From Candidatus Hodarchaeota archaeon (GTDB lineage: Archaea; Asgardarchaeota; Heimdallarchaeia; Hodarchaeales; Hodarchaeaceae): a stretch of DNA of 12,938 nt. Of the stretch, positions 7,583 to 8,224 are shown piece by piece; the first letter of the stretch is position 1; every line of letters begins with the position of its first letter. Position numbers and translations under genes: made by a program. The notes under the pieces are model-generated. The model was not told the origin of the DNA. It searched no databases and was given only the letters and a program-made list of their open reading frames with translations. The stretch spans positions 1 to 12,938 of the forward strand of contig JAEOTC010000204.1 of NCBI GenBank assembly GCA_016840035.1, given 5' to 3'.

Positions 7583-8224
7583 TTGGTCATGAGTCAGAGC
7601 ATTAGAGTCTTCAAGAAGAGGCTTCAAATCTCCCAAAAAAAGTGGACTACTGTTCAAGGCCAGTCATTACGTACAGTAAATATGGTTCTCAATATTCTAT
7701 CACGATATAATATGACCCAACGTTCTGATGTATTCTCAGATGCTTTGAAATCGAAATTTGATGATGTCCAAGGAAGACTTGCATTCCGTCTTGCTGAATC
7801 TATTAATAGACACATAACGGAATTAAAAACTTTTCTAACTCATTTTGAAGATATAATTCAGGAAATGAGGAAAATTGAACAGAATTTTCATTGCGATATA
7901 CTCCAACCAGCAAAAAACCGTGCTTCAAAAGACTTTGATGAATGGCCCCACGATCTAGAAATTATAGATCAAGCAGAAAATACTATACGTAAAATTATCG
8001 ATATGTATGAAACAGAGCTTGCACTACGCAATCAGATTGTTTACGAAATTCAGGAATCTCTTACGCCTCAATTACATGTCATTTCTGCATATTTGATACT
8101 ATGGACTTCAGAAATCTACATTGAACCAACAAGAATTCATGAGCTTATAGAAGAGTTTAGCTATGTTGAGAAGATCTATGAGCGTTATCAATCAAATGAA
8201 GCCATAAATCCCATTTCAAAATGA
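7583..8224 (+). CDS. CINP/C1orf109-like all-helical protein (probable start ATG 7589)
   Basis: KW….Q….TVN…N, F.EWP, KIIDMYETELALR and AYLILWTSEIYIE are colinear with remembered human CINP motifs (KWETLND…TANNIAN; FHTWP; KLLEMYRKELLLK; SYLSMWLHQPYVE). Length is similar (~210 aa). Confidence 0.7.
   Translation: MVMSQSIRVFKKRLQISQKKWTTVQGQSLRTVNMVLNILSRYNMTQRSDVFSDALKSKFDDVQGRLAFRLAESINRHITELKTFLTHFEDIIQEMRKIEQNFHCDILQPAKNRASKDFDEWPHDLEIIDQAENTIRKIIDMYETELALRNQIVYEIQESLTPQLHVISAYLILWTSEIYIEPTRIHELIEEFSYVEKIYERYQSNEAINPISK

Follow-up and report, generated by a model that had tools for sequence, protein, structure and literature searches.

A single-copy Hodarchaeales homologue of CINP and C1orf109, the adaptors of the SPATA5-SPATA5L1 ATPase

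The SPATA5-SPATA5L1 (55LCC) AAA+ ATPase acts in the maturation of the large ribosomal subunit and in the removal of replisome proteins, and mutations in SPATA5 and SPATA5L1 cause neurodevelopmental disease. Its lid is built from CINP and C1orf109/AIRIM, two adaptors with five helices each. To our knowledge, both adaptors were formerly thought to be restricted to eukaryotes. Here we analyze a CINP/C1orf109-like (CINPL) gene from Candidatus Hodarchaeota archaeon (GCA_016840035.1), which lies in a stretch of 12,938 nucleotides of contig JAEOTC010000204.1 (positions 1 to 12,938 of the forward strand; hereafter the window, whose positions are used throughout). A preliminary description of this stretch, made from the letters alone, had read the gene as an archaeal homologue of the two adaptors and had mentioned CINP-like proteins from earlier surveys of Hodarchaeales. 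That mention is correct, and Asgard relatives of CINP were already known before this analysis: according to Köstlbacher et al. (bioRxiv 10.1101/2024.07.03.601958; Nat Microbiol 2026, PMC12962969, Fig. 4h), five major Asgard clades have CINP homologues and no other prokaryotes do, and in their CINP tree the eukaryotes are sister to Hodarchaeales with 99% ultrafast bootstrap support (UFBoot; PMC12962969).

The CINPL gene is an intact open reading frame on the forward strand (7589-8224, including the stop codon at 8222-8224), whose translation has 211 amino acids. We regard it as close to certain that this is a real, single-copy Hodarchaeales gene, predicted to be of the expressed type, and that it is homologous to both CINP and C1orf109/AIRIM, which upholds the family assignment of the preliminary description. 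The Pfam model PF15011 (C1orf109-like, CA109-like) matches residues 10-99 with 39.6 bits (E = 6.1e-10), over its curated gathering cut-off of 27 bits, and also recognizes 20 of 21 diverse Asgard relatives, where it attains up to 52 bits and up to 152 of its 161 profile positions, reaching position 156. A profile of the 21 diverse relatives in turn retrieves human CINP from the PDB sequences with E = 7.1e-11, aligning positions 5-177 of 208 with CINP 7-179 of 196, and even a profile confined to Hodarchaeales reaches CINP at E = 0.0014. The AlphaFold2 model, computed from a 59-sequence alignment, is all-helical with six helices (predicted local distance difference test score 89.3, predicted template-modelling score 0.82), and this predicted model has the five/six-helix bundle fold seen in CINP and C1orf109. 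When the model was compared with the PDB by Foldseek, as the preliminary description had proposed, the ten best matches all came from these two proteins, namely CINP (template-modelling score, TM, up to 0.77 at 16-18% identity) and C1orf109 (TM 0.65-0.69 at 12-14% identity); the top ten span TM 0.50-0.77, and later ranks fall below 0.45. A protein-language-model search, with the 57% identical homologue P0053 as the query, likewise places eukaryotic PF15011 proteins as the nearest clusters (score 0.95). The protein also has the features by which the Asgard CINPL family is recognized, i.e., a length in the range of about 200-245 amino acids, similarity to CINP over the full length, and a position in the Hodarchaeales clade.

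The likeness might in principle be explained without common descent, by the general features of a four/five-helix bundle or coiled coil. We give this explanation hardly any weight, and the PF15011, CINP-profile, and Foldseek results effectively refute it. The next match of the diverse Asgard profile after CINP is a designed spike-derived helical bundle with E = 0.0038, such that CINP beats the best unrelated match by about eight orders of magnitude, with an alignment that is colinear over the full length. Moreover, the most conserved residues of the family are aligned with CINP, PF15011 is exceeded at its curated threshold, and the Foldseek search on combined structural and amino acid alphabets (3Di+AA) yields only CINP and C1orf109 chains in its top ten. 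The outcome that the preliminary description had named as fatal to its identification, i.e., generic coiled-coil matches alone with motifs that fail to align in profiles, is not what the profile searches and Foldseek gave.

In a direct phmmer search of the PDB sequences with the single sequence, human CINP is the only match with E < 0.01; it aligns over residues 18-184 with E = 0.002. In this alignment all four colinear blocks that the preliminary description had matched to CINP are in register: KW at the N-terminus; FDEWP (residues 116-120; 7934-7948), facing FHTWP of CINP; MYETELAL (residues 139-146; 8003-8026), the CINP-type M-Y-x2-E-L-x-L motif, facing MYRKELLL; and YLILWTSEIYIE (residues 168-179; 8090-8125), the CINP-type Y-L-x2-W-x4-Y-x-E motif, facing YLSMWLHQPYVE. 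Three of these blocks are family-wide. Among 59 Asgard sequences, the columns of W19 (54/59), M139 (57/59), E143 (58/59), L146 (49/59), W172 (57/59), E175 (55/59), Y177 (54/59), and E179 (49/59) are strongly retained. The fourth block, F-x2-WP, does not share this pattern: across 20 Hodarchaeales sequences F116 is found in only one, W119 in 12, and P120 in 10, and the block lies in the lowest-confidence loop of the AlphaFold2 model. Because its key residues are not conserved in Hodarchaeales, the resemblance of this block to CINP appears to be partly coincidental. The tryptophan W19, which has its counterparts in the KW of human CINP and in a W of C1orf109, terminates a basic N-terminal stretch, KKRLQISQKKW (residues 9-19; 7613-7645), of whose 11 residues nine (K9, K10, R11, L12, Q13, Q16, K17, K18, and W19) are invariant and the remaining two, I14 and S15, nearly so in the 20 Hodarchaeales sequences.

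The relationship to C1orf109 emerges chiefly from the N-terminal half. A profile restricted to the first 110 residues from 18 Asgard lineages has C1orf109/AIRIM as its best natural match in the PDB, though a weak one (E = 0.11-0.23 for three deposited sequences), with CINP following at 0.8-1.3. This profile aligns a motif of the helix 1-helix 2 connector, L53-x3-F57-x2-V60-x2-R63-L64 (7745-7780), with L63-RAF-PD-L69-KER-L73 of C1orf109. The segment DALKSKFDDVQGRL (residues 51-64), which the preliminary description had likened to C1orf109, is hence aligned to L-R-A-F-P-D-L-K-E-R-L as described there, though by a match that is not significant by itself. Across the 59 Asgard sequences, F57 is kept in 55, position 60 is I, V, or L in all 59, R63 is found in 46, and L64 in 45. 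L53, V60, and L64 of the window's protein (P0001) align with C1orf109 L63, L69, and L73 (numbered as chain index +1, an offset that yields the residue letters given in published work), and mutation of these three leucines abolishes CINP binding (PMC11055677). On the opposite face, the CINP residues L162, S181, and S184 (chain index +16, checked by residue letters), which belong to the interface with C1orf109 (PMC11055677), align with L146, A167, and I170. As judged from these alignments, the single archaeal protein would keep equivalents of the two faces through which human CINP and C1orf109 meet, a state that fits, without proving, a self-associating pre-duplication form. A further CINP residue, E147, contacts R84 of SPATA5 (PMC12019325); it aligns with N131, which adjoins the conserved E130.

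These observations bear on the alternative that the archaeal protein is a CINP orthologue only, whose likeness to C1orf109 reflects noise or the general similarity of helical proteins and is uninformative on a pre-duplication ancestor. In its favor, the full-length Asgard profiles match CINP (7e-11, 3e-7, 1.4e-3) and do not reach the C1orf109 chains of the PDB at E ≤ 10, the N-terminal alignment to C1orf109 is not significant by itself at E = 0.11-0.23, and in the published tree the family figures as CINP. Set against this are the scores of the C1orf109-named Pfam model, both here and over most of its length in the relatives, the precedence of C1orf109 over CINP on the N-terminal half, the presence of C1orf109 chains in the Foldseek top ten at TM 0.65-0.69, and three conserved hydrophobic positions that fall exactly on the three CINP-binding leucines. 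On balance we consider a CINP-only relationship improbable, though worth keeping in sight, and retain homology to both adaptors as the better account.

The window also offers a second potential start codon, a TTG at 7583 that lies two codons 5' of the ATG at 7589 and directly after an in-frame TGA. In the four closest orthologous loci, an ATG occupies the homologous position after a TGA, with no TTG, and the proteins of all close homologues begin with MSQSIR; the start is therefore taken as 7589, and the comparison of the loci makes this ATG the better candidate. The residues cited earlier as W21 and F118 exist, but they had been counted from the TTG, and from the ATG they become W19 and F116. 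Ratios of nonsynonymous to synonymous substitution rates (dN/dS) of 0.02-0.07 against four orthologues with 84-88% protein identity, with synonymous sites saturated, together with a mean column identity of 71% across 20 Hodarchaeales sequences, establish that the CINPL gene is a real protein-coding gene under strong purifying selection. The GenBank/NCBI annotation of these CINP-like proteins is nevertheless "hypothetical," and NCBIfam holds no model for them. Upstream of the gene (7561-7582, forward strand) the sequence contains an A/T-rich TATA-like stretch at about 7561-7570 and the conserved element GGATATGA at 7575-7582. The latter, with the consensus GG(A/T)TTTG(A/G), recurs 7-14 nucleotides 5' of the start codon, at the same distance, in 17 of 19 orthologous loci (L007-L022, L025), despite the variability of the start codon itself (ATG, TTG, or GTG). 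It is unlike a classical Shine-Dalgarno sequence.

The distribution of the family across Asgard lineages, which the preliminary description had suggested examining, is patchy: 129 of 400 Asgard genomes have a CINPL match, including 20 of 21 in the window's own family, both of the two in a second family of the same order, and 80 of 89 in a Thor-type family, with none among 31 genomes of another family of the same class and a single weak match among 135 of a Loki-type family. When 1.8 billion representatives were searched exhaustively with phmmer, 21 proteins emerged, of which all the named ones come from Asgard metagenome-assembled genomes (MAGs). Orthologues with 47-88% identity are present in 19 Hodarchaeales genomes, and trees place the window's protein within the core clade of Hodarchaeales. 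Every one of the 129 positive genomes, which are species representatives, carries a single intact copy; partial copies occur in the three genomes with two matches. In the source genome (4.30 Mb in 293 contigs, 87% complete), the Pfam model and two Asgard profiles each detect one copy; a second, paralogous adaptor subunit with which a heterodimer might be formed was not found in this 87% complete genome with the same models. The single-copy state fits a pre-duplication state.

Two MAGs depart from this pattern in encoding two divergent CINP-like genes each, P0100 and P0116 (ACFFCZ_19430 and ACFFCZ_16360) in one and P0147 and P0106 (ACFFBD_04465 and ACFFBD_22450) in the other; their first copies are 72% identical between the two MAGs and their second copies 29%. 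This may reflect a lineage-specific duplication or contamination of the bins, with an independent archaeal step toward a heterodimer as a side possibility. A FastTree tree split the Asgard family in two, with ACFFCZ and ACFFBD each contributing one copy per group, and we considered whether these groups correspond to CINP-like and C1orf109-like paralogues. We rejected this division as unsupported: the profile of the second group also matches CINP (E = 3.3e-7) and not C1orf109, a better tree model shifted the P0100-type clade beside the Hodarchaeales side, and the profile of that clade matches neither CINP nor C1orf109.

Taken together, we are fairly confident that the best overall explanation is a CINPL family homologous to CINP and C1orf109 whose members would act as self-associating adaptors of a Cdc48/VAT-type ATPase, although the mechanism as a whole, which is drawn from homology, is on its own less likely than not. 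Concretely, we propose that the CINPL protein might be a small helical-bundle adaptor, in which the helix 1-helix 2 connector (L53, F57, V60, and L64) of one copy would insert into the bundle face of a second copy, near L146, A167, and I170, in a manner mirroring the T-shaped human heterodimer. Such an assembly might dock onto the N-domains of a general Cdc48/VAT-type unfoldase, where it would shape how substrates enter. What we observe is the gene itself, together with its conservation, homology, and single-copy state; self-association, the ATPase partner, and any substrate are what we infer from them. The stronger evolutionary form of the proposal, by which the archaeal protein stands near the pre-duplication form of CINP and C1orf109, self-associates through the future heterodimer contact, and already caps a Cdc48/VAT-type unfoldase, is speculative and probably incorrect in at least some part.

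Candidate partners are at hand, as the source genome (G000) has three full-length Cdc48-like ATPases, encoded at C28:128420-130657, C112:12041-14263, and C35:9457-11730, and Cdc48-like ATPases with N-domains are present in all 190 of the 190 Asgard genomes searched. Several results, to which the faintness of the C1orf109 sequence signal adds, nonetheless weigh against the adaptor proposal. The most divergent of the three Cdc48-like paralogues, the one compared with the PDB, scores 659 bits with VAT, 597 with Cdc48, 590 with p97, 505 with SPATA5, and 477 with Drg1, and appears by these scores to be VAT/Cdc48-like rather than SPATA5-like; no SPATA5-type ATPase was identified in the source genome, with one of the three paralogues compared in this way. 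CDC48_N match counts per genome (4-7 in Hodarchaeales; 2 in the CINPL-positive Thor-type genomes; 2 in the CINPL-negative sister family of the window; 3-5 in the CINPL-negative Loki-type genomes) show no correlation with the presence of CINPL across Asgard genomes. A second L24e gene of the Rlp24-like kind was not found, the source genome having one PF01246 match, although at 87% completeness this absence is uncertain. There is no AAA+ gene near CINPL in any lineage examined (Hodarchaeales, the Thor-type family, and the family f12), in line with the earlier remark that the window holds no such partner, and no fused or longer CINPL forms were found in the protein collection, which is weak evidence. 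Finally, human CINP is monomeric when purified, as is human C1orf109 (PMC11055677), and self-association is therefore not a property of the family, while yeast Drg1 works without CINP/C1orf109 adaptors (PMC11055677).

Two more specific candidates were accordingly set aside: a dedicated Cdc48 paralogue as the partner, for which CDC48_N counts that do not track CINPL offer no support, and an Rlp24-like placeholder as the substrate, given the single L24e gene. As to the counts themselves, the 4-7 CDC48_N matches of Hodarchaeales versus about 2 in the sister family and the Thor-type genomes suggest a lineage expansion of Cdc48 N-domain proteins. A 434-amino acid protein of the source genome (G000, C57:44036-45340, forward strand; L006) begins with a weak Cdc48 N-domain-like region (30.7 bits, below the cut-off) and continues with a von Willebrand A-type-looking domain with the DxSxS-like motif LDVSGSM; it has no AAA+ domain.

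The main rival to the adaptor model accepts the homology and removes the ATPase: the protein would work in archaea as a stand-alone scaffold or nucleic-acid-binding factor, and recruitment to a SPATA5-type ATPase would have arisen only in eukaryotes. We hold this to be a serious possibility, on a par with the evolutionary proposal set out above and still short of probable. It would account for the lack of a dedicated ATPase, an Rlp24-like substrate, an AAA+ neighbor, or a fusion in the searches described above; the invariant basic N-terminal stretch might bind nucleic acid; and the earliest account of CINP presents it as a factor in replication and checkpoints. The human C1orf109-CINP pair has, furthermore, been assayed by DNA/RNA band shift, and the whole complex binds DNA (PMC11055677). 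What speaks for the Cdc48/VAT-type adaptor model over this rival is that the family has just one role defined in mechanistic terms, as the lid of the SPATA5 complex, and that a partner is always available, as attested by the ubiquity of Cdc48-like ATPases with N-domains in Asgard genomes. The earlier idea of a pre-duplication, possibly homo-oligomeric ancestor of a eukaryotic signature protein stands as far as homology and the single copy are concerned. The direct transfer of the human function is weakened because the compared paralogue is VAT/Cdc48-like, the L24e gene is single, and the CDC48_N counts are untied to the presence of CINPL.

The genomic context is highly conserved in Hodarchaeales, where the order and orientation of an 11-gene block, with genes on both strands, are kept in 19 genomes (L007-L025) wherever the contigs reach. 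The block runs through genes for a 230-amino acid protein, a 388-amino acid protein, a DUF5752 protein, a 412-amino acid protein, a small winged helix-turn-helix-like protein, a 720-amino acid membrane protein, the CINP-like protein, a 488-amino acid protein, ArcS, and RaSEA. The direct neighbors of the CINPL gene are the same in 19/19 Hodarchaeales loci, down to 47% identity, namely the divergently oriented gene for the 720-amino acid membrane protein (5186-7348, reverse strand) and the convergent one for the 488-amino acid protein (8240-9706, reverse strand), which has a weak FtsZ_C match (E = 0.19). Further downstream, an ArcS-like gene (9959-11866, forward strand) codes for DUF5591, TGT_C2, and PUA domains, with NCBIfam ArcS as the best match below its cut-off, and is followed by the gene for its radical-SAM partner (radical S-adenosylmethionine) RaSEA (11871-12938, forward strand; TIGR01210 at 270 bits versus a cut-off of 212), which continues past the end of the window; the two genes lie side by side as a pair for the synthesis of archaeosine. 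The Thor-type genomes differ in placing CINPL among genes for a class I Trp/Tyr-type tRNA synthetase, a helix-turn-helix-CBS protein, and an S-adenosylmethionine synthetase, and in the family f12 the context includes phosphoglucomutases. No functional clue was obtained from gene context in Hodarchaeales, the Thor-type family, or f12.

A relative in archaea that are the closest known kin of eukaryotes places the origin of the adaptor before eukaryogenesis, as already published, and an archaeal system with one subunit provides a simpler setting for asking what such adaptors do. Were the pre-duplication cap real, the lid of the SPATA5 machine would be older than eukaryotes and older than the SPATA5 ATPase itself. 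The addition made here is modest, i.e., one more well-conserved single-copy member and the apparent presence of both interface faces in one protein, whereas the negative results (no dedicated ATPase, Rlp24-like gene, or informative context) narrow the routes to its function.

With respect to the known systems, the gene belongs to the same family and the same lineage as the Asgard CINPL proteins of Köstlbacher et al., and nothing essential differs between them. Their main text treats the family as CINP, with C1orf109 appearing only in the title of a reference; the present analysis adds the C1orf109-type connector motif and documents the single-copy state for the gene of the window. Human CINP (PDB 8cih, 9gwj_B, 8rhn_C/D, 9lgo_I/J) shares with the archaeal protein the length class, the five/six-helix bundle, and a colinear full-length alignment, along with the KW, MY..EL.L, and YL..W...Y.E motifs and the interface position L162, equivalent to L146. 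It differs in an identity of only 16-19% and in that its region aligned with residues 45-65 is devoid of the archaeal L..F..[IV]..RL motif; further, human CINP pairs with C1orf109 on SPATA5-SPATA5L1 as a heterodimer, whereas in the archaeon a single copy is present and no SPATA5-type ATPase was identified. Human C1orf109/AIRIM (PDB 9gwj_A, 8rhn_A/B, 9lgo_H; PF15011) resembles the archaeal protein in its fold (TM 0.65-0.69), in its N-terminal W, and in the counterparts of L63, L69, and L73, and differs in an identity of 12-14%, a weak direct match (E = 0.11), and a C-terminal half in which the archaeal family has no detectable sequence match to its PDB chains.
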